Numbered from the stretch's first letter, positions 18,009 to 37,538 are shown. The stretch is 64,000 nt of DNA from Myxococcales bacterium (GCA_012744445.1 JAAYBZ010000097.1:4457-68456), one strand, 5' to 3'. Made by a program: numbers and translations. Notes: generated by a model from the letters alone, not told the origin.

Positions 18009-20389
18009 GAGGGCTCCTTTCGTCCGGGTCCGACGAGCGCGATCGCGGAGGGTGCGAGCACGAGGCAGGCGAAGATCCCGACCGACGCCGTGAGGCCGAT
18101 CGAGGAGAGAACCGGATGCGCGCTCAGCGCGAGCAAGCTGAAGCCGAGCAGCGTGGACACCGCGGCGAGCACGATGGCGAGGAGCGAGGCGTCGCGGTGC
18201 GCTTCGTCCATGCGCTCGGCGTGGACGAGGAAGAGCCCGTAGTCCACGCCCATGCACACCACGATGAGGAGCGTGGTGAGCGTCACGAGATCTACGCCGC
18301 GCCCGGCGAGCGAGAGCGCGCCCAACGTGGTGAGCGCGGCGACGAGGGCCGGCGCGAGGGCAGCGAGCGCGCCGCGCAGGCTCCGCTGCTGGATGACGAC
18401 GAGGATCAACACCGCGAGGAGGCCAAGGGCGAGGAGCTCGAGCGTGTGCGCGCGGTAGGTGGACGCGGCGCGCCCGAAGAGCTCGCCCTGACGCAGGAAG
18501 GTGACCCCCTCGACGTCGGCGAGGTGCTGCGCGAGCGCGCCCTCGTCGCGGACGCCGTTCAAATAGGTGAGGAAAGCGACGCCGTCGGGGAGCTCGAGCC
18601 GAAGCGAGCGCACCATGAAGGCGAGCGGCGAGTCGAGCAGCGCCGCGTACTCGAGCGGCTCGGGCATCGGCTCCTCGAGGTAGGCGAAGAAGGGCGAGAA
18701 CGCCTCGGGCACGAAGCCCTCCGCGGCGAAGGCCGCCTCGAAGCGCGCGCGGAGCGTGGCGTCGCCGAGGAGCGCGGCCTGCGAGGCGCGCTGCGTAGCC
18801 GGGCTCGGGAGCAGGCGGTGGATGCCGTGGAATCCCTCGAGCGCGCCCTCCGTCTGGGCCTGTTCGAGCGCGCGCGCGGCTCGCTCGTTCGCCTCGAGCG
18901 CGCTCCCTTCGTCGGCGCCCCGAGCGACGACGAAGCGCATCTGCTCGAAGCGCGTCACGCGGTCCCGTACGCGCTCGTCCTCGGCGAGGAGCGCGGGATC
19001 GACGCCGCCCATCTCGCCAAAGCCCTGGCCCTCGGGCATGGACGGGACGGTGAGCGCGACGAAGACGAGGGCGCCGCCGAAGACGACGAGCGCCGCGCGC
19101 CGATTTCGCCGCAACGCGCCGAGCGAGGGGCGGAGGAGGGCGACGAAGCGCTCCCGCGCCGCGACGGGGCGCATCGTCGTGGGCAGCAGCGAAGGGATCA
19201 TCGCGCGCGTGATCGCGAGCGAAGTCCCGACACCCACGGCCGAGAAGAGGGCGACCTCGCGCAGCCCCGGGAGCGAGGAGAAGAGGAGCGCGACGAAGCC
19301 GAGGATGGTCGCGGCGGCGCATGTGAAGAGCGTGCGATCGATCTCGCGCAGGGTCCCGCGCGGGCCCTCGGGCGAGGGCGCGACGGCGTGGTGGCAGTAG
19401 AGGTGCACGACGTAGTCGACCGTCACGCCGATGAGGGAGGCCCCGAACGCGAGCGTGATGCCATGGACGCGGTCGCCCACGAGGAGCACCGCCGCGAGGC
19501 CGGCGAGCACGCCGCCGCCCACGGGGAGCGACGCGAGCGCGATGAAGCGCAGGCTCCGGAAGAGCGTGAGGAGGGCGAGCACGAGCGTGACGACGGAGAC
19601 CACGGAGATACGCGTGATGTCGCGCTTGATCGCTTCCTCGGCGTGGAGGGCGAAGCGGTGGATGCCGCTCTGGTCCATGGAGAGCTCGCCGCCGAGCGCG
19701 TGGTTCGTGCGCGCGAAGGCCTCCGCGATGGCCTCGAAGAGCGGCCGCTGCGCCGCCGTGTCGAAGGCTTCGGCGCGGGTGCCCATGAAGAAGACGGCGT
19801 AGCGACCGTCCTGGGTGAGGTATCGACCGTCGACGACGGAGAGGCTCCGCGCCTGCCCCTGCTCGAGCGACTCGAAGACACCCGGCACGACGAGGAAGGG
19901 GTCCAGGGGTGCGAGGCGCGTGAGGAGCGTGGAGGTGGGCTGCGAGAGGCGATCGCGGAGCGAGGACGCGGCGGCGCGGAGCCCCTCGTCCGAGAGGCGC
20001 TCGCGCGCTTCGTCGGGCGAGCGAGCGAAGAGCTGGGCGCGGTGCGGGAAGTAGAGCTCGAAGATCTGGCGCTCGAACTCCGCCGGCGGCCCGCCCTCGA
20101 GGAAGGCGAGCGCTTCCGTCACGAGGGGATCGCTCCGCAGCTCCGCCTCGAAGCGGCGGCTCGCCTCGAGGGCGACGTCGCGACTCGGCGCGCCGATCGT
20201 GATCACGATCGTACGGCTGAGCTCACCTCTGGCGATCTCGCGCGAGAGGCGACCGAGCTCGCGATCGTCTCCCTCCGGGAGGAAGGAGGTCACGTCGGTG
20301 TCCATCGCGAAGCGGCTCGCGACGAAGACGGCCGCGCCCGCGAGCGCGAGGAGCCCGAAGAGGAGGGCGAGACGATCCCGTCGGCTCAT
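18005..20389 (-). CDS. MMPL/RND-superfamily exporter (ApeM-like)
   Basis: This is a 794-aa polytopic protein with two blocks of TM helices separated by soluble loops. The N-terminus is 'RLALLFGLLALAGAAVFVASRFAMDTDVTSFLP'. It is collinear with apeM, between the LolA-like and DUF3261 genes. Confidence 0.8.
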
Positions 20390-21027
20390 GTCCCGTCGCG
20401 GCCGAAGAGCCGCTCCTTCTCGGCGGCGCTGAAGGTCCGCCGGGGGTCGGCGTCGAGGATCCGCGTGACGCTCCGATCGCCCGAGGTCTCGTGCACCTCG
20501 ACGGTGCGCACGGCGAGGCCCTCGCCCGAGAGGCGGATCTCGCGGACGAGCTTGTCGAGCGGCGCGCGGCGGGGCTTCATCGAGAGCGCCCAGGTGGCGC
20601 CGCCCGAGAACTCCAGGACGAACGCCTCCTCGAGGGCCGCGCGGTTGCCGGAGAAGAGCCAGAGCAGGGACTCGACGAGCGGGCGGACGTCGGGGCGTCC
20701 CGCGAGGTCGAGCTCCTGCACCTTCTCGCCTTCGCGGATGCGGAGCCGCGTGCCCGTGACGAGCAGCTCTTGCGGCTTGGGTGACTCGACGCGGCGGAGG
20801 AGCATCCCCGGCGGCGCGAAGAAGAGGGTGCCCTCACTCTTGAGCGGCACGGCGAGGAGGCTCATCGTCTTCTCCTCGACGAAGCGCGCCTCGAGCCCCG
20901 GCATCTCGGAGAACGCCCGAAGGAGGCGGTCGAGGCTCATCGGCGCGTCGGCCGCGGCGCTCCCGAAGAGGCCGAGGACGAGCGCGAAGAGCGCGACGCT
21001 AACCTTGGATGCGCGAGACGATCGCAT
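20386..21027 (-). CDS. LolA-like outer-membrane lipoprotein carrier family protein (ApeL-like)
   Basis: It has the signal peptide 'VSVALFALVLGLFGSAAADA'. The approximately 190-aa mature domain has a LolA-like pattern ('LEARFVEEKTMSLLAVPLKSEGTLFFAPPGMLLRRV'). An ATGA overlap links it to the exporter gene. Confidence 0.7.
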   Translation of the reverse strand: MRSSRASKVSVALFALVLGLFGSAAADAPMSLDRLLRAFSEMPGLEARFVEEKTMSLLAVPLKSEGTLFFAPPGMLLRRVESPKPQELLVTGTRLRIREGEKVQELDLAGRPDVRPLVESLLWLFSGNRAALEEAFVLEFSGGATWALSMKPRRAPLDKLVREIRLSGEGLAVRTVEVHETSGDRSVTRILDADPRRTFSAAEKERLFGRDGT

Positions 21028-21412
21028 CGGGGGTCTCCGGGAAGAGCTTGCCTTGGGCGTCGGTCGTGGCGAGCGTGGTGGAGGCGCGCGCGCTCTTCCG
21101 CCCGTGGGTGAGGTTCTTCACCTCGTAGGCGATGCGGAGGAGCGGCCGCGCCTCGACGATGCGCGCCGTGACCTCGAACGCGTCGCCGTAGTGCAGCGGG
21201 AACATGTACCGGCAGCGCGCCTCGGTGATGTACATGCGGAAGCCCATGTCGCGGATGCGCGGCACGTCGAGCTCGAGCTGCTCGAGGAGCTTCTGACGCG
21301 CCACCTCGAAATACTCGAGGTAACGCCCGTGCCACACCACGTTGAGCGGATCGCAGTGGTGGAAGGGGACGTCGAAGCGCGTGGTCCTCTCGAGAGCGCG
21401 GGGCGAGTTCAT
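20999..21412 (-). CDS. 4-hydroxybenzoyl-CoA-thioesterase-fold (YbgC/4HBT) thioesterase (ApeK-like)
   Basis: It is a 137-aa hotdog protein. 'FDVPFHHCDPLNVVWHGRYLEYFEVARQKLL' carries the 4HBT catalytic Asp context. The ATG at 21412 overlaps the stop of the ammonia-lyase gene (ATGA). Confidence 0.75.
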   Translation of the reverse strand: MNSPRALERTTRFDVPFHHCDPLNVVWHGRYLEYFEVARQKLLEQLELDVPRIRDMGFRMYITEARCRYMFPLHYGDAFEVTARIVEARPLLRIAYEVKNLTHGRKSARASTTLATTDAQGKLFPETPDAIVSRIQG

Positions 21413-22971
21413 GTGAGGCTCGGATCTCCCGTGGGAAGCGCGCCCTCGCGCATCATCGCGAGCACGGCGTGGACGTCGCGATCCATGCGGCGGTCCTCGA
21501 CGAGGCGCGGGACCTCGCGGCGGACCGCGTCCAGGATGGCGGTGGCGCGCCTCGAGCACGCGGTCTCGCCGCGGAGCTCGACGGCCTGGCAGACGGCGAG
21601 CGTGAGCATGGCGGCGACCTGCTCGGTGATCTCCACGATGCGCAGCAGGTCGCGCGCGGCGATGGTGGCCATCGGCACCTTGTCCTGGTTGTGGAGCTCG
21701 GTGCTGCGGCTGAACGCGCTCGCCGGCATCGTGAGCTTGAGCGCCTCGGCGGCGAGGCTCGAGGTGGCGATGGTCACGGCCTTGAAGCCGTTGTGGACGC
21801 ATGCGCCCTCGCCGTCCACGCCCTTGAGGTCGCGCGGGAGACCGTCGTTCTCCTCGGGGTTGCAGAGGAGGAGGAGCTGGCGATCGAGGAGGCAGGCCAC
21901 GTTGGCGACAGCGGTCTTGAGCGAGTCGCAGACGAAGGCGACGTGCCCGCCGTAGAAGTTGCCGCCGTGCAGGATGCGCTCGCTCTCCACGTCGACGAGC
22001 GGGTTGTCGCTCACGCCGTTGAACTCGGTCTCGAGCGTCTCGGCGGCGAAGCGGAGCGCGTCGACGAGCACGCCGATGACGTGGGGCGCGCAGCGGATCG
22101 AGTAGCGATCCTGGAGGCGCGCGATCGAGCGCGCGGGCGGGCGGTCGAAGACGAGGTCCTCGCGGATCCACGACGCCACGCGCACCTGGCCACGGTGCGG
22201 CTTCGCGTCGTGGATGAAGGCGTCGAAATGCGAGGGGTTCCCGTTGACCGCGAGGGAGGTCATCGCCGTGATCGACGAGGCGAGCCGCGCGAGCGCGCGG
22301 GCGCGCTCCCACGCGAGGCAGGCGATGGCCGTGGCCACGGCCGTGCCGTTCATCAGCGCGAGCGACTCCTTGGGTTTGAGCGTGAGCGGCTCGAGCCCGA
22401 GCGCCTCGAGGGCCTCACGGGCCGGGACCTCGCGCCCGCGGTAACTGACCTCTCGCTCGCCGACGAGCATGGCCGCGACGTAGGAGAGCGGCGTGAGGTC
22501 GCCGCTCGCGCCCACGGAGCCCTCCGCGGGGATGCGCGGCAGGACGCGCTCGTCGAGGAAGCGCACGAGGCGCTCCGCGAGCTCGACGCGCACGCCGCTC
22601 TTGCCGGCCGCGAGCGAGGCGATGCGCAGCGCGAGCACGGCGGCCGCTTCTTCTTCTTCGAGGATGCGGCCCGTCCCGCAGCCGTGCATGCGGAGGAGGT
22701 TGAGGGAGAGCTCGGCAGCGCGCTCCTTGGGCACCTCGACGCAGACCGACGCGCCGACGCTCGTGGTGACGCCGTAGATCGAATCGCCGCTCGCGTGGAG
22801 GCGCTCCATCACCTCGGCGCTCCGCCGCATCCGCTCGCGAGCTTCGGGGGCGAGCGCCGGGCGCACCGTCCCACGGGCGAGCGAGACGACGTCGTCGATC
22901 GAGAGGGGACGCGCGCCGATCTCGAGGGTGTCGGGCGCCGCATCGAGGCGCTTCAGGGCAATGGGGTTCAT
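21409..22971 (-). CDS. MIO-dependent aromatic amino acid ammonia-lyase (HAL/TAL/PAL family; tyrosine ammonia-lyase suspected from context)
   Basis: The MIO-forming triad sits in 'GSVGASGDLTPLSYVAAMLVGE'. Other family motifs are 'IYGVTTSVGA' and 'ESLALMNGTA'. The true start is ATG 22971 (MNPIALKRL...). The 877-aa track ORF carries a spurious N-terminal extension. Confidence 0.85.
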   Translation of the reverse strand: MNPIALKRLDAAPDTLEIGARPLSIDDVVSLARGTVRPALAPEARERMRRSAEVMERLHASGDSIYGVTTSVGASVCVEVPKERAAELSLNLLRMHGCGTGRILEEEEAAAVLALRIASLAAGKSGVRVELAERLVRFLDERVLPRIPAEGSVGASGDLTPLSYVAAMLVGEREVSYRGREVPAREALEALGLEPLTLKPKESLALMNGTAVATAIACLAWERARALARLASSITAMTSLAVNGNPSHFDAFIHDAKPHRGQVRVASWIREDLVFDRPPARSIARLQDRYSIRCAPHVIGVLVDALRFAAETLETEFNGVSDNPLVDVESERILHGGNFYGGHVAFVCDSLKTAVANVACLLDRQLLLLCNPEENDGLPRDLKGVDGEGACVHNGFKAVTIATSSLAAEALKLTMPASAFSRSTELHNQDKVPMATIAARDLLRIVEITEQVAAMLTLAVCQAVELRGETACSRRATAILDAVRREVPRLVEDRRMDRDVHAVLAMMREGALPTGDPSLT

Positions 22972-32051: not shown

Positions 32052-32836
32052 GCGGGACGATGGAAGCCGCGGTCGTCGGTCTCGGGCTCTTCGTGCCGGG
32101 GCATCCCACGCTCGCGCATTTCTCGACCGAGCCGGCCGACGAGGCGGCGCGGATCCCGGCGGGTGCGTTCCTCGATCCGCGCACGCGTCGGCGTGCGAGC
32201 GTCGTGACGCGCGCGCTCGCGGACGTCTACGGCGAGGCGCTCTCGCAGAGCGGGCTCGATCCGCGCGACGTCGCGTCCGTGTTCGGCTCAGCCCTTGGGG
32301 AAGCGTCGACGATGATCTCCATCCTCGACCAGATCTTCCGCGAGCACGGACCCGTCTCGCCGATGAAGTTCGTGACGAGCGTGCACAACACGGCCGCGGG
32401 GCTCGTGTCGATCGCCTCGAAGAACCAGGGCTTCGCGACGTCGATCGGCGCCGATTACGACACGCCGGCGATGGCGCTCGCCGAAGGGCTCGGGCTGGTC
32501 GTGGCGCGAGGGATGCCGTCCATCGTGGTCGCCGGTGAGGAGCCTTCGCCCGAGGGTCTCATCCCGGACGAGTCGACTTGGGGCCTCTTCGCGGGGGCGG
32601 TGGCGCTCGCACCGGTCGAGAGAGCGCCAAAGGAGGCGATGCGCGTGCGCGCGTTCGTCTCGGGGGAGCCGACGATCGCGCCGAGCGAGACGTCGCCCGC
32701 ACTCTCGCGGAGCCCGGTGACCGGAATCCTCGACTTGGTCGTGGCGCTCTCGCGTCGCGAGACGGGGCGGCTCCGTCTCGATCGGGGCCAGGGGCGAGGC
32801 TTCGTCGTCGAGCTCATCGATCCGACCCATGGCTGA
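32048..32836 (+). CDS. KS-like chain-length-factor protein (ApeC-like, no active-site Cys)
   Basis: It is 262 aa. 'SPMKFVTSVHNTAAGLVSIASKNQGFATSIGA' matches the Ketoacyl-synt_2 / CLF pattern. An ATGA overlap links it to the KS gene. Confidence 0.7.
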   Translation: MSGTMEAAVVGLGLFVPGHPTLAHFSTEPADEAARIPAGAFLDPRTRRRASVVTRALADVYGEALSQSGLDPRDVASVFGSALGEASTMISILDQIFREHGPVSPMKFVTSVHNTAAGLVSIASKNQGFATSIGADYDTPAMALAEGLGLVVARGMPSIVVAGEEPSPEGLIPDESTWGLFAGAVALAPVERAPKEAMRVRAFVSGEPTIAPSETSPALSRSPVTGILDLVVALSRRETGRLRLDRGQGRGFVVELIDPTHG

Positions 32837-33260
32837 GTATCCGCCGATCTCCGAGCTCGTGCCTCATTCGGGACCCATGGTCTTGCTCGACGCGATGCGT
32901 GCGTGGGCGCCCGGGGAGGCGACGTGCACGATGCGCGTGCGGGAGGGGATGCCCTTCGTGAAGGGTGAGCTCTTCGACGCGGTGGCGCTGATGGAGCCGA
33001 TGGCTCAGGCGGTCGCGGCGTGCCTCGGCTACGAGGCGTTCCAGGGCGGGGAGGGGGTCCGGGTGGGGATGATCATCGGGTGCCGGAAGTTCGAGGTGGA
33101 CGTCCCGGCGGTCTCGGTGGGCGAGGAGCTGGTGATCCGCGTGGCGCGGCTCCGCGGGTCGGATTCGTTGAGCCACTTCGAGTGTGAGACGTGGCTCCGT
33201 GAGGGGTCGATCGCGCGCGCGACGCTCACGCTCTTCCACACGGAGCGGCCGCCGGGGTGA
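32829..33260 (+). CDS. hotdog-fold 3-hydroxyacyl-ACP dehydratase (ApeP-like)
   Basis: It is 143 aa. The N-terminal 'ISELVPHSGPMVLLDAM' is typical of APE/xanthomonadin cluster dehydratases. It overlaps the CLF gene by 8 nt. Confidence 0.7.
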   Translation: MAEYPPISELVPHSGPMVLLDAMRAWAPGEATCTMRVREGMPFVKGELFDAVALMEPMAQAVAACLGYEAFQGGEGVRVGMIIGCRKFEVDVPAVSVGEELVIRVARLRGSDSLSHFECETWLREGSIARATLTLFHTERPPG

Positions 33261-33286
33261 GGAGCGAGGGGCTGGTGCTCGACGTC

Positions 33287-33623
33287 GACGGACCCAGGTT
33301 GAGTTTTCCAGTCGGCTGGGCGGGCCCGATGCGCGGCGCCTCGACGGACCCAGGTTGAGTTCTCGGCCCCCCAGTCGGCTGGACGGACCCAGGTTGAGTT
33401 CTCGCGGACGGCACCCCGCGACGCCGGACGGGCTGGACGGACCCAGGTTGAGTTCTCGCGGACGGCACCCCGAGACGCCGGACGGACCCAGGTTGAGTTC
33501 TCGGGACGAGGCTGGACGGACCCAGGTTGAGTTCTCGCGGAATTAGCTCCGAGTTCTCTGGACCGATGCTTTAGGGAGCGCACGGGCCCCGGCTCGGAGG
33601 AGAACGGTCCAAGGTTGAGTTTG
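33287..33623. repeat. array of REP-like direct repeats (consensus GACGGACCCAGGTTGAGTTCTC), 6 good copies plus 1 degenerate
   Basis: Copies start at 33287, 33343, 33382, 33436, 33481 and 33515, with a degenerate copy at 33602 (GAACGGTCCAAGGTTGAGTTTGG). Spacing is irregular, 34-56 nt. The copies at 33382 and 33436 belong to a longer unit of about 50 nt repeated with one mismatch. Confidence 0.8.
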
Positions 33624-33670
33624 GACGGGCAGGGCTGTTTGCCGAAACACGCGACTGGAGTGGACGACGA

Positions 33671-34582
33671 ATGCACATGTCGCGTCCCCGGCCAGTGTTT
33701 CCAGGCGATGTAATCCACATCCAACGTCGCACACGAGATGGGCGGTTCTTCCTCGTGCCTCGCGCGCGAACGGTTCAGCTCGTGCAGTACGCGTATGCTG
33801 TCGCGGCGGCTCGAACGGGCGTGCGTATTCACGCGCTGTGCATAATGAGCAATCACATTCACGCTGTCGCCACCGACACGGATGGGAGACATCCGGAGTT
33901 CACCGCCTACGCTCACCGTCTCATCGCCCTCGGCATCAAGTCGATGTTTGGCGTCGACGGGACCATTTGGAGTGAAGGCGGGGCGTCGGTGCAGCGACTG
34001 GTCGGGGAGACGGCAGTGGTCGAGGCTCTCGCCTACGTGGCCGTGAATCCGGTTGCTGCCGGATGCGTTCGGCACGAACGAGAGTACTCCGCGCTGTTCC
34101 TCTACGACGAGAGCGCTGCCAGACGTACACGCGTCGCGCGCCCGGCCTGCTTCGCGGAAGATTCCGTGCTTCCCTGTGAAGCCGAGCTCGTCCTGACCCC
34201 ACTGACGACGTCGATACATGTGACCGATCCCGTCGAGGCCGCGAGAAGGCTTCGATGCGCGACGCGCCGACGGCGGGAAGAGGCTGTCCGCGAGCTGACG
34301 AGCGCCGGCCGCCGGTTCATCGGTATGCGAGGTGTTCTAGCGGTGGATGTATGGACGCGCCCACGACGTCCCGTGAGACGTGGCGACCTTTCGCCGACGT
34401 TCAAGGGAGCGCTACGAGAGGCAATCCGCTTCGCGGCGGCGACCCTAAGGGCGTTCCGCCGTGCATATGCGGAGGCCATGGAAGCATTCCGCGCGGGGCG
34501 AAGGAACGTGAAGTTTCCGCCAGGCACGTACCTCATGCGGAAGCGCTACGGATGCGCCGTCGAAGTCGCGATCGCGGCCTAA
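33671..34582 (+). CDS. REP-associated tyrosine transposase-like protein (HUH / Y1 transposase, IS200-like fold) with C-terminal extension
   Basis: The HUH motif is in 'IMSNHIHAVATD' and the catalytic-Tyr motif is in 'LAYVAVNPVAAGCV', about 60 aa later. That is the same spacing as E. coli RayT as I recall it. The N-terminal strand is 'GDVIHIQRRTRDGRFFL'. GC is lower than the flanks, and REP-like repeats flank the gene. Confidence 0.75.
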   Translation: MHMSRPRPVFPGDVIHIQRRTRDGRFFLVPRARTVQLVQYAYAVAAARTGVRIHALCIMSNHIHAVATDTDGRHPEFTAYAHRLIALGIKSMFGVDGTIWSEGGASVQRLVGETAVVEALAYVAVNPVAAGCVRHEREYSALFLYDESAARRTRVARPACFAEDSVLPCEAELVLTPLTTSIHVTDPVEAARRLRCATRRRREEAVRELTSAGRRFIGMRGVLAVDVWTRPRRPVRRGDLSPTFKGALREAIRFAAATLRAFRRAYAEAMEAFRAGRRNVKFPPGTYLMRKRYGCAVEVAIAA

Positions 34583-34617
34583 CGCGTCCTCCGCCGGTAG
34601 CAATGTTCGGAGCGCAC

Positions 34618-35715
34618 CTAGGAGCGGCGGGCTCCGATCATGAGCCGAGTCGTTCCGGCGAGCTCCTGACTCGACTCGAGCCTCAGGCCCGCCGCTGCGA
34701 ACAGACGACGAAATTCGGGTTTGGTGCGCTCTCGTCCCGGCCCGAGAAGCGTCATCATTTCAAGGTCGAGTAGTCGAGTCCCATCCCGATACGAAGGCGG
34801 AAGCATGATCCCTTCGACGACGAGCACTCGACCCTGCGGCGCGACGGCGGAGGCGCAGTTGCGGAGGATGCGAACGGCGTGCTCGTCTGACCAGTTATGG
34901 AGCACGTGTTTGATGACGTAGACGTCGGCGCCGTCAGGGACGGACTCGAAGAAGTCGCCTACACGCACCTCTGCGCGCTCGGTGAGCATCTCACGCTCGA
35001 AGACCGCACGCGCAGCGTCCGCGACGGCGGCTCGCTCGAGCAATACGCCTGAGATGTGGGAGTGGCGCTTCAAGACCTCCACGAGGAGTGTTCCACGTCC
35101 CCCACCAACATCGACGACTCGACGCGTCGCGGAGAAGTCGAAGCTCGAGGCGAGTGCGATCGCTTCCAATCGCGTGAACGCGTCGACTGCTCGGTGATAG
35201 ACCTCGGCGTGTTCTGGATGGCGCTCGAGGTACTCGAAGAGTCCCGTCCCATGATGCAGCTCGAATGCCGTGTCCCCGTTGCGGATCGCGTCAGGCAAGC
35301 GCGACCAAGGGTCCCAGGAGAACGGCGCGCCCGTGAACGCAGCGAGCTCGCCGAGGACGCCACTTCGGAGTGGGGCTCCGAGAGGCGTCACCGAGAGGAT
35401 GCCGGTTGCATCAGACTCCAAGAGTCCTTCGGACTCCAGAATGCCCAGGAGTCGGGTCAGCATTCCGGTGTCGCACCGAAGCGCGACGGCTAGAGACGAG
35501 GCGGGCTGGGGGTGCTCGATGAGGACGTCGAAAACCCCCAGGTTGGCCGCCGTGGCGATCGCCGCGCTGATCCACTTTCCGCCGAGCAACTTGAGGACGT
35601 GAGCGGTCGGCTCGGTCGGCTCAACCTGGGTCGGTTTCTCGGCCGGCTCAACCTGGGTCGGTTTTTCGGCCGGCTCAACCTGGGTCGGTTTGGATTCGTC
35701 GCTCTCGCTCCGCAC
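34618..35715 (-). CDS. SAM-dependent O-methyltransferase (Methyltransf_2 / plant-type OMT family with dimerisation domain)
   Basis: The SAM motif is 'RRVVDVGGGRGTLLVEVL'. The N-terminal winged-helix/dimerisation region is 'LKLLGGKWISAAIATAANLGVFDVL'. I propose GTG 35715, preceded by GGGGGAGGGG directly after the halogenase stop. TTG 35589 is an alternative. The 518-aa track ORF is over-extended. Confidence 0.8.
   Translation of the reverse strand: MRSESDESKPTQVEPAEKPTQVEPAEKPTQVEPTEPTAHVLKLLGGKWISAAIATAANLGVFDVLIEHPQPASSLAVALRCDTGMLTRLLGILESEGLLESDATGILSVTPLGAPLRSGVLGELAAFTGAPFSWDPWSRLPDAIRNGDTAFELHHGTGLFEYLERHPEHAEVYHRAVDAFTRLEAIALASSFDFSATRRVVDVGGGRGTLLVEVLKRHSHISGVLLERAAVADAARAVFEREMLTERAEVRVGDFFESVPDGADVYVIKHVLHNWSDEHAVRILRNCASAVAPQGRVLVVEGIMLPPSYRDGTRLLDLEMMTLLGPGRERTKPEFRRLFAAAGLRLESSQELAGTTRLMIGARRS
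35611..35691. repeat. 27-bp tandem repeat x3 (minus-strand reading AAACCGACCCAGGTTGAGCCGGCCGAG, peptide KPTQVEPAE)
   Basis: The units at 35611-35637, 35638-35664 and 35665-35691 differ by 1-3 nt. Each contains CTCAACCTGGGTC, the reverse complement of the REP-like core found left of the RAYT gene. Confidence 0.85.
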
Positions 35716-35726
35716 GCCCCTCCCCC

Positions 35727-37538
35727 TCAGCCCCCGACCGCGGCCGTCTCGGCCTCGACCTCGACGAGCAACGACGACAGCGCCGAGCGCACGCGCTCTT
35801 TGCTCGTCACGTAGTTCGGCTGGCCCACGCAGCGATCCACGTCCCGCGCGATCGGGCTCAGCGTCCGCCGGCGCGTGAGGCCCACGGTGTCGTGCTGATC
35901 CAACCGATCCGCCGGGATGCGGAGGTCGAACTTCGCCGCCTGCGTCCGCTCCATGAACTCGTCGAAGAGCTCGTCGCCGATCTCGAACGCCGTCCTGAGC
36001 AGGAGCTCGCCCACCACCTCTTCGGCCTCGACGAGGCGCGACTGCATGTACGCGAGCGTCTCCTCGGGCGACCAGCGGTTCTGGAGCGCGAGGTGCGCCT
36101 CCACGAGCACCGAGGGGAACTTGGGCATCGGCGCGAAGCCGCCCTTGGAGAGCTCGGGCTTCAGCGTCGCCCACGTGGCGAGGAAGGTCTGCACGTAGTT
36201 CGAGAGCTCGACGAAGCGGCGCCCTACCGTCATCACCTCCTCGAGCTTCGGCCCGGTGAGCCGATAGAGCTCCTGGAGGAAATACTGGCAGGGGTACGAC
36301 CAGTACGAGAAGTTGTCCCAGTAGATCTTCGCGAGCATCGCGCGGCCGTGCCCGTAGATGGGCGCCGCCTGACGATAGATGTCCACGCTCCCGTTCACGA
36401 AGGAGCGGTACTGCAGGCTCAGGTCCCGCGCGCGCTGCTCGAGCTCCTCGCGGCTAGCACCTGCGTAGTCCGCACGGATGAGCTCCTCCGTGAACGAGTT
36501 GGCGTAGGCGATGAAGTCCGAGCCCGGGCTGTAGAGCGGATCGACGAACGCCCCCGCCTCACCGACGAGCGCCCAGCGATCCCCCGACCAGCCACGCGCG
36601 ATGTTGTGGCTGTACGAGCGGAGGCACTTGAAGTCCATCACCTCGAACTTCTTGATCTGCTCGGCGAGGTGTGGCTCGTGCTTCTCGAAGAACGCCATCA
36701 CGCGGTCGAGCGTGCGCACCTCCTCGAAGCCGTGCGGGGGATCGTGCACCACGAGGCCGATGCTCGTATTGCCGGTCGAGAGCGGGATGATCCACGCCCA
36801 ATAGCCCACACCCATGAGGTGGTTGGTCGAGCGCCAGCGATCCCCGGCCCACGACGCCTCGTGCCACACCTTCGCCTCGGGCGGCGCGAACTGCGTGATG
36901 TCGACGCGCCCACGGACGCGGAACCAACCCGAGTGCGCGTTGTGCCCGGAGCCGCGCGTGAGCTTCTGCTCGCGCCGGACGAGCGCCGCGCGCCCGCTCG
37001 CGTCGACGAGCCAGCGGCTCTCGATCCACGCCTCGTCGCCCGACGCACCACGGATGCGCGTGCGATGCGCCTCTCCACCCTTGCCGAGCACGATCTCCTC
37101 GACGCTCACCCCTTCGAGGAGCGTGACGCCGTCCTCTTCTTCGATCATCGCGCGGAGATCGTTCTCGAACCGACCGCGATCGAGCTGATAGGAGGGAACG
37201 ATGGGCTCCTGCGCCGCGCCGATCTCCATCCGCTCGTGGATCGGGAGGTGACCGCCACCGGGATAGAACCGAAGGCCGTGCTTGAAGATCTGGTTCTTCT
37301 TCAAGTACTCGACGAGCCCGAGGCTCTCGAAATACTGTGAACCGAGCTCGACGCTCGATTCACCCACCTTGTGGGCCGCGTCCGGCAACGGGCGAGCGAT
37401 CTTCTCCGCGACGAGCACACGGAGGTTCGGGTGCTTCCGGCGGAGCTGGCGGGCCAGCGTGAGGCCCGCGAGGCCGCCTCCGCAGATGACCACGTCGAAG
37501 GACTGCTTGTCGAACGGCGCGACGGAATCGAGGTTCAT
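35727..37538 (-). CDS. flavin-dependent halogenase-like FAD enzyme (long form, 603 aa)
   Basis: Evidence is the FAD motif 'DVVICGGGLAGLTLA', 'AAHKVGESSVELG', the WxWxIP motif 'GYWAWIIPL', and 'FVDPLYSPG'. A roughly 200-aa C-terminal extension has no motif I can recognise. Confidence 0.75.
   Translation of the reverse strand: MNLDSVAPFDKQSFDVVICGGGLAGLTLARQLRRKHPNLRVLVAEKIARPLPDAAHKVGESSVELGSQYFESLGLVEYLKKNQIFKHGLRFYPGGGHLPIHERMEIGAAQEPIVPSYQLDRGRFENDLRAMIEEEDGVTLLEGVSVEEIVLGKGGEAHRTRIRGASGDEAWIESRWLVDASGRAALVRREQKLTRGSGHNAHSGWFRVRGRVDITQFAPPEAKVWHEASWAGDRWRSTNHLMGVGYWAWIIPLSTGNTSIGLVVHDPPHGFEEVRTLDRVMAFFEKHEPHLAEQIKKFEVMDFKCLRSYSHNIARGWSGDRWALVGEAGAFVDPLYSPGSDFIAYANSFTEELIRADYAGASREELEQRARDLSLQYRSFVNGSVDIYRQAAPIYGHGRAMLAKIYWDNFSYWSYPCQYFLQELYRLTGPKLEEVMTVGRRFVELSNYVQTFLATWATLKPELSKGGFAPMPKFPSVLVEAHLALQNRWSPEETLAYMQSRLVEAEEVVGELLLRTAFEIGDELFDEFMERTQAAKFDLRIPADRLDQHDTVGLTRRRTLSPIARDVDRCVGQPNYVTSKERVRSALSSLLVEVEAETAAVGG

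Follow-up and report, generated by a model that had tools for sequence, protein, structure and literature searches.

The closest described systems to the locus analysed here are genes for Y1 HUH nucleases that lie between inverted repeats. In REPtrons, a TnpA_REP (RAYT) gene is flanked by repetitive extragenic palindromic (REP) sequences or bacterial interspersed mosaic elements (BIMEs), with repeats that are imperfect palindromes of 20-40 nt, form hairpins in single-stranded DNA (ssDNA) and often carry a GTAG tag (Nunvar 2010; Ton-Hoang 2012; Bertels & Rainey 2011). In TIRtrons, RAYT-like genes (TIRYT) are flanked by inverted repeats unrelated to REPs, sometimes as small clustered families; the repeats occur in dimers or clusters, and some genomes have the gene without a dispersed family (Di Nocera et al. 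2013, PMC3733652). REPs of the GTAG and CGTC types have also been reported inside genes (PMC3733652). Among TnpA_Y1 proteins the signature Y---NP marks class 2 (TnpA_REP-like), and the long, C-terminally extended subclasses 2.1 and 2.3 have been reported without REPs, without flanking repeats or with single terminal inverted repeats (TIRs) (Quentin et al. 2018, PMC6006769). Here we analyse a stretch of 64,000 nt from a Myxococcales bacterium (GCA_012744445.1 JAAYBZ010000097.1:4457-68456), referred to as the window, with positions counted from its first letter. It contains a biosynthetic cluster of the aryl-polyene type (xanthomonadin/flexirubin-type pigment), in which a RAYT/TIRYT-like gene and a neighbouring O-methyltransferase (OMT) gene are bracketed by inverted arrays of one short motif. 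We propose, with a probability of about 0.55, that the RAYT/TIRYT-like gene was acquired together with its cognate arrays and that the OMT allele of the cluster was probably replaced.

The most fitting description of the locus is a TIRtron/REPtron variant, combined with what was probably the replacement of an allele. As in REPtrons, the N-terminal domain of the protein has TnpA_REP as its best match and carries Y---NP, the gene looks single-copy, and the repeats flank it in inverted orientation, with seven copies on the + strand upstream and three on the − strand downstream. In contrast to REPtron repeats, those in the window have neither hairpin nor GTAG tag and give no sign of high-copy dispersal in the 64 kb and the collections scanned, and the protein is twice as long as a RAYT and falls below the RAYT equivalog cut-off. 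The likeness to TIRtrons consists in a Y1 HUH protein that is longer than RAYTs and bounded by inverted repeats unrelated to GTAG REPs. However, the ends in the window family are not formed by one long TIR but by arrays of 3-8 copies of a non-palindromic unit of 11-22 nt, in the window a gene that does not encode a transposase is enclosed by them, and the features of the majority type (subclass 2.1), GGGGWSAS in the TIR and a helix-turn-helix (HTH) C-terminal domain, are not seen here. With subclasses 2.1 and 2.3 the protein shares the motifs NH[VIY]H and Y---NP, a length well above the core, a conserved C-terminal domain, low copy number and a patchy distribution consistent with horizontal transfer, whereas clear arrays of a cognate motif accompany the window family. 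The C-terminal domain of this family differs from the DnaA_C/HTH type of subclass 2.1 and its core lacks the insertions of subclass 2.3, a separation drawn from the published descriptions. IS200/IS605 elements have a TnpA of ~150 aa with Y---Q, subterminal hairpins, multiple near-identical copies and often tnpB, whereas the window protein has 303 aa and Y---NP, hairpins are lacking, and no tnpB-like open reading frame (ORF) adjoins the RAYT-like gene, which is present in one copy per context.

Ends made of several binding sites are found in Tn7 (TnsB sites) and Mu (L1-L3/R1-R3), and capture of adjacent genes in the HUH elements IS91 and ISCR. The analogy with the window is functional, in that direct units of the size of a binding site lie at one end, inverted ones at the other, and a passenger gene between them. 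These elements use DDE transposases or two-tyrosine rolling-circle Rep enzymes, however, and the 'passenger' in the window is at its ancestral position.

The RAYT-like gene (33671-34582, + strand) encodes 303 aa, and by homology its true start may be the ATG at 33677. The HUH motif SNHIHAV and the tyrosine motif YVAVNPVAAG, from which the original prediction had proposed a RAYT gene, are both present and are conserved across the family: in an alignment of 30 members H62, H64, N126 and P127 are invariant, Y122 is conserved in ≥90%, and H54 is conserved. The N-terminal HUH/Tyr nuclease domain thus carries the class-2 signature Y---NP; it is followed by a C-terminal domain of ~150 aa, which is conserved across the family and ends in FPxGTYxM. 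The protein has no Pfam match (PF01797 not matched at E≤0.01), and when the 30 members were scanned singly at E≤1, PF01797 matched 19 others (best E=5.6e-6) and not the window protein. The NCBIfam model REP_Tyr_transpos (NF047646) gives 35 bits, below its cut-off of 80, and the C-terminal half has no HTH, DnaA_C or other Pfam match. With a family profile, the best match by sequence among solved structures is TnpA_REP of Escherichia coli (4ER8, E=0.002). The same structure is the best Foldseek match (E=1e-5, TM 0.70) of an AlphaFold2 model with pLDDT 90, followed by the TnpA proteins of IS608 and ISDra2; the C-terminal half of the model has no structural match. Judged by its conserved residues and predicted fold, the 303-aa product is a genuine RAYT-like Y1 HUH protein. 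The family is large, with 1,532 representatives of 50%-identity clusters in metagenomes at E≤1e-30, and nearly all of the best 150 of these are matched over their full length. Every homologue sits in one fixed context, and the locations of homologues differ between related genomes.

In a strain 97-99% identical to the window (L026, SMEH01000749.1), a 2.76-kb IS21-family element encoding IstA (522 aa) and IstB interrupts the RAYT-like gene (L026:1591-4355, corresponding to ~34137-34142), leaving fragments of 182 and 154 aa. The gene is therefore dispensable.

Upstream of the RAYT-like gene lies a non-coding array of direct repeats (33287-33536, + strand), in which motif and repeat searches found the 22-mer GACGGACCCAGGTTGAGTTCTC at 33287, 33343, 33382, 33436, 33481 and 33515 (0 expected); five copies are exact and the one at 33287 has 1 mismatch. 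A degenerate, promoter-proximal copy, ACGGTCCAAGGTTGAGTTT, follows at 33604-33622 (+ strand) and ends ~50 nt before the start codon, in line with the six copies plus one degenerate copy that had been noted from inspection. The start-to-start spacing is irregular (56, 39, 54, 45 and 34 nt), and the array, which cannot be coding, holds a 54-nt higher-order unit that is repeated twice. The 13-mer core GACCCAGGTTGAG, searched with up to one mismatch allowed, gives nine matches against 0.01 expected, all of them exact, six on the + strand and three on the − strand (35620, 35647 and 35674); outside the two arrays it has no match in the 64-kb window. The number of left-array copies varies between strains, with six in the window, five in L026 (exactly one 54-nt unit less) and four in L004. 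Short-read contigs often end within the array, and some of these counts are possibly affected by assembly.

Three contigs (L001, L002 and L006) stop ~150 nt upstream of the RAYT-like gene, inside the left array. Since several independent short-read assemblies break there, the array is prone to being lost or collapsed in public metagenome-assembled genomes (MAGs) from this lineage.

The repeats had been taken for REP-like sequences, and this part of the original prediction did not survive the analysis. In ssDNA folding the 22-mer has a minimum free energy of 0 kcal/mol and no hairpin, and the arrays show no significant structure (z-scores of -1.3 to +1.5 against shuffled sequence). Neither the GTAG tag nor the GGGGWSAS motif occurs in the repeat unit GGCTGGACGGACCCAGGTTGAGTTCTCG. 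A search of 185,579 species genomes, the source genome not among them, with an 18-mer of the repeat returned three single matches in unrelated taxa (Planctomycetota, Dehalococcoidia and Geobacter), where a simple size estimate gives ~17 chance matches. In the metagenome collection the 18-mer was found at this locus only (strain contig L026), apart from chance singles in unrelated taxa or in low-GC contigs without similarity to the window. The repeats thus show no sign of dispersal in the 64 kb and the collections scanned. They form no ssDNA hairpin either and are not REPs.

A core of the same motif, ACCNAGGTTGA, adjoins homologues of the RAYT-like protein that are 50-55% identical and lie in unrelated housekeeping contexts; the pooled consensus is (C/G)G-ACC-N-AGGTTGA-(T/G). 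At L037, three direct copies lie upstream of a 51%-identical homologue and three to four inverted copies directly downstream. At L035, one to three copies precede the homologue and an MPAB-family gene, and eight inverted copies follow, in an array 1.4 kb downstream of the RAYT-like gene; the homologue and the MPAB-family gene have the lowest GC content at third codon positions (GC3) of that locus, 0.65-0.66 versus 0.70-0.76. The orientation rule, direct upstream and inverted downstream, holds in these two loci and in the window. L010 has copies at -56 and -101, and L014 has eight copies in 13 kb (0.3 expected) across four intergenic regions, one of them at ~-77; in the related genomes L010, L014 and L037 the core occurs in several nearby intergenic regions. 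A further match in L010, at 7167, was rejected as an element copy, being part of the codon string for a GYGNLG Rossmann motif. Arrays of a diverged motif form are present at L007, downstream of a 61%-identical homologue, where the stretch L007:7135-7326 holds a 16-nt tandem array, GTGGCCGGGCCAACGT, of ~10 copies and after it repeats of the GCCAACGTGGGTC type, in which the inverted motif has diverged. Taken across loci, the comparison shows a gene-motif association at the level of the family and indicates that the motif belongs to the RAYT-like family.

In L037, five more motif copies (L037:12-124 and 1209-1270) lie beyond the neighbouring tRNA-synthetase gene (168-1145). Since a housekeeping gene is also bracketed by arrays there, 'bracketed' cannot safely be read as 'cargo'.

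The distribution of the motif bears on whether the protein could be a domesticated regulator, with the arrays as operator- or iteron-like sites for its own gene or its neighbours, no cleavage or mobility, and the copies in the OMT gene as a by-product. A motif copy that lies, in the window as in L010 and L014, 55-80 nt before the start codon, the lack of ssDNA structure in the arrays, the AACCTAGGTT form, a palindrome in the duplex of the sort that dimers typically bind, and the size of a family whose C-terminal domain is conserved over its full length would all suit such a role. We nevertheless consider it improbable. The HUH histidines and the tyrosine are conserved across the family, which implies retained catalysis; foreign composition (see below) and differing locations in related genomes imply mobility or transfer; the eight-copy array of L035 lies far downstream of the gene; and no sigma-70-like promoter was detected at the window locus by a signal scan.

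The second array (35611-35691, − strand) is a 27-nt tandem repeat with three copies, 96% matches and no indels, each unit holding the 13-mer in inverted orientation (spanning 35620-35686). The OMT gene (34618-35715, − strand; 365 aa; PF00891 and PF08100, Pfam E=1e-41) has the GTG at 35715 as its only usable start, and in its reading frame the units encode repeats of the KPTQVEPAE type within the N-terminal tail of the protein. The array is therefore at the 5' end of the OMT gene and not beyond it: the three inverted core copies of the original prediction are there, and the arrays do enclose the RAYT-like and OMT genes in inverted orientation, but the far array had been placed on the wrong side of the OMT start. 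In alignment, homology to the N-terminus of the relatives covers the GTG and the first eight codons; between codon 8 and the conserved HVLKLLGGKW, the window has the repeat block of ~84 nt as an insertion. Near-identical strains have 2, 3, 4 or 5 PTQVEP units, in blocks of 21, 27 or 36 nt that are always multiples of 3.

Pro/Glu-rich linker repeats are common, and the PTQVEP repeat is translated, in frame and variable by whole codons, as expected of an ordinary coding repeat with no relation to the upstream array. We regard such a coincidence as extremely improbable: the two arrays agree at 13/13 positions (15/16 when extended), against an expectation of ~0.01 in the window, orthologous OMTs are entirely without the block, and at other loci the core is likewise found inverted next to homologues.

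Directly upstream of the OMT start (35716-35740), the overlapping GTGA of the relatives is replaced by TGA and an 8-nt spacer, GGGGGAGGGGC, before the GTG, which uncouples the halogenase stop from the OMT start. The spacer yields a strong Shine-Dalgarno-like run immediately before the OMT start.

The OMT gene occupies the identical site, in the same orientation, in four related aryl-polyene loci (L029, L031, L033 and L038), where the order is Mur ligase, halogenase (603 aa), OMT, convergent ApeP dehydratase (DH), chain-length factor (CLF), ketosynthase (KS), halogenase and ketoreductase (KR). In these relatives the OMT start overlaps the halogenase stop, so that the two are translationally coupled, and the closest OMT homologues have 337-339 aa without the N-terminal extension. 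The four loci lack the RAYT-like gene, and a motif scan of L029, L031 and L033 gave zero matches. The convergent stops of OMT and dehydratase are 8-30 nt apart in L029/30, L033/34 and L038; in the window the segment 33261-34617, with the left array and the RAYT-like gene, is inserted at this junction, and it and the in-frame block in the OMT tail are the two insertions relative to the relatives. The identity of the OMT to its relatives (59-73%) tracks that of DH and CLF (54-78%), and amino-acid identities of 71-73% for the OMT are comparable with 75-78% for the neighbouring DH and CLF. Judged by synteny, the OMT is an ancestral member of the cluster and not new cargo. Among strains it is under purifying selection, differing by 10-13 synonymous versus 2-4 non-synonymous codons.

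At the same convergent junction, L031 and L032 carry a ParD/ParE toxin-antitoxin pair (L031:2461-3026 and L032:2447-3039). Accessory DNA appears to have landed at the OMT/dehydratase junction repeatedly.

The original prediction had considered that the element delivered the OMT into the cluster; since relatives have the gene at the same site without RAYT-like gene or motif, an outcome that the prediction itself had listed as refuting, the element delivered no OMT function. The same evidence speaks against a cargo transposon, in which array, RAYT-like gene, OMT and inverted array would move as one unit with multi-site ends and would have brought the OMT into the cluster. The bracketing of two genes of foreign composition by inverted arrays does favour such a unit, as does a second case, L035, where a non-transposase gene separates the RAYT-like gene from the inverted array and the two genes have the lowest GC3 of the locus. 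However, no empty site lacking the OMT is found among the four related clusters, in which the gene is in addition coupled to the halogenase, and the right array does not take in the OMT start or the first eight codons, both of which have homologous counterparts in the relatives. Moreover, the collections searched contain no second copy of the array-gene-OMT-array unit and no further 18-mer copy, and the homologues are each confined to one fixed context. The cargo transposon is thus largely refuted by synteny, and we hold it to be quite improbable.

What the OMT gene does share with the RAYT-like gene is a foreign composition, and formal analysis bears out the lower GC that had been estimated from single lines. 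A set of 37 genes from the window has a GC3 of 0.907±0.051 (minimum 0.80), compared with 0.70 for the RAYT-like gene and 0.75 for the OMT, and the A+T content at four-fold sites is 0.28 and 0.28-0.31, respectively, against 0.06 in eight host genes. Both enclosed genes are compositionally foreign. OMT orthologues in relatives have a GC3 of 0.90-0.94, the same as their own neighbours, and the foreign values resemble those of lower-GC genomes in which the RAYT-like family has native composition. The low-GC3 tract comprises the RAYT-like gene and most of the OMT (33671-35496). Its left change point is at the stop of the ApeP-like dehydratase (32829-33260, + strand; GC3 0.92), which forms the native left flank; the right one is near 35496 and inseparable from positions up to the stop of the halogenase (~35727), and the first ~70 OMT codons look native (GC3 0.85). 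The native right flank is a FAD-dependent halogenase of 603 aa (35727-37538, − strand; GC3 0.91), which lies upstream of the OMT in the same operon. In-situ cytosine deamination, for example through ssDNA exposure, was rejected as a cause of the low GC3, because the changes at conserved four-fold sites are mostly transversions (14 C to G, 10 C to A and 8 C to T). Dating by synonymous divergence was uninformative, with four-fold sites saturated in all comparisons.

Given the shared foreign composition and the coincidence of the break points with the arrays, a single import probably brought in a tract of ~2 kb, made up of the RAYT-like gene and the greater part of the OMT, in place of the resident OMT allele. 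Repeats at both ends of an acquired OMT, the other possibility raised at the outset, come closest to this evidence, with the correction that what was acquired is a replacement allele and not a new gene.

Two independent events would explain the locus differently: the RAYT-like gene and its arrays inserted, and the OMT allele arrived separately by ordinary homologous recombination with a divergent population, without any role for arrays or protein. The synteny of the OMT and its congruent protein distances agree with this, and the native-looking first codons allow the tract to end inside the gene and not at the array. There are also ~20 single-nucleotide polymorphisms (SNPs) in 530 nt (34590-35122) relative to L001, L003, L004, L005 and L026, against ~0.2% in the flanking genes; the hot spot covers the 3' half of the OMT and the spacer and suggests a recombination tract. 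On the other hand, the two genes are only 36 nt apart and indistinguishable in four-fold composition, with an A+T content ~5x that of the host, and the left break coincides precisely with the dehydratase stop and the array, whereas random crossovers would be expected to fall within the homologous dehydratase gene. We rate two separate events as unlikely, while giving them some weight.

Several observations weigh against the acquisition and allele replacement in one event that we favour. Taken alone, the change point inside the OMT does not reach significance, and with an edge anywhere in 35496-35727 the right array may lie inside or outside the imported tract. The protein distances of the OMT are congruent with the rest of the cluster, which requires any donor to match the recipient roughly in distance, and the OMT homologues included no allele that looked like a donor's. 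The canonical motif is absent at L017 and L036, the latter having only a CAGGTTG-type variant, the form at L007 is diverged, and L014 departs from the orientation rule. Finally, the link between protein and motif is drawn from sequence comparison.

We propose the following course of events. A single-copy RAYT/TIRYT-like gene would have been acquired horizontally and lodged in the convergent junction of the aryl-polyene cluster, bringing its own short motif with the core given above and a TIRtron/REPtron-like layout that arises from multi-site arrays rather than from hairpins. With no intergenic space downstream, the inverted copies would have come to lie on the far side of the next gene, in the disordered tail of the OMT. 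The source of the tract was probably a lower-GC relative with the same cluster, from which the resident OMT allele was replaced. Since hairpins are lacking and a palindromic variant of the motif exists, we infer that the protein binds the arrays, plausibly as duplex DNA through its C-terminal domain. The HUH/Tyr centre may nick and rejoin one strand nearby and so seed or remodel motif copies in adjacent permissive DNA, and where intergenic space is missing, only an in-frame copy in a disordered tail would survive. The arrays may also expand and contract by slippage, and may have marked or promoted the recombination that imported the tract.

We further speculate that the two-domain RAYT-like family defines an undescribed Y1-HUH mobile unit, with ends made of non-palindromic arrays, that can enclose and exchange a neighbouring gene and that here swapped the OMT allele and left a repeat tail; we regard this as a doubtful, tentative extension of the data.

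The remainder of the pigment cluster comprises genes for an LpxL-like acyltransferase, an AMP-ligase, an acyltransferase, KR, a halogenase, KS, CLF and the ApeP-like dehydratase, in addition to the OMT and the second halogenase. An Rfam search over 32800-36000 gave no match at E≤1, and the signal scan gave no intrinsic terminator. In L004 (MAG contig SMEK01002095.1), 26 nt of the 603-aa halogenase gene (36387-36412 of the window) are missing and the gene calls are split there, which reflects either a frameshifted allele or an assembly error. Elsewhere in the window, an ORF of 1,279 aa (18116-21955) has no Pfam match at E≤1e-5 and, with 0.80, the lowest GC3 among the native-looking genes.

With this analysis, a large and so far unstudied branch of RAYT-like HUH proteins gains a cognate DNA motif, and the 22-mer with its 11-nt core provides a concrete substrate for biochemical tests. 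It corrects a more dramatic reading of the locus, since the cluster received no new tailoring function. The case shows that an element of this kind can be lodged within a biosynthetic cluster and furnish a tailoring enzyme with a variable peptide tail, and the coincidence of its presence with the probable replacement of an OMT allele points to a possible route of cluster diversification.

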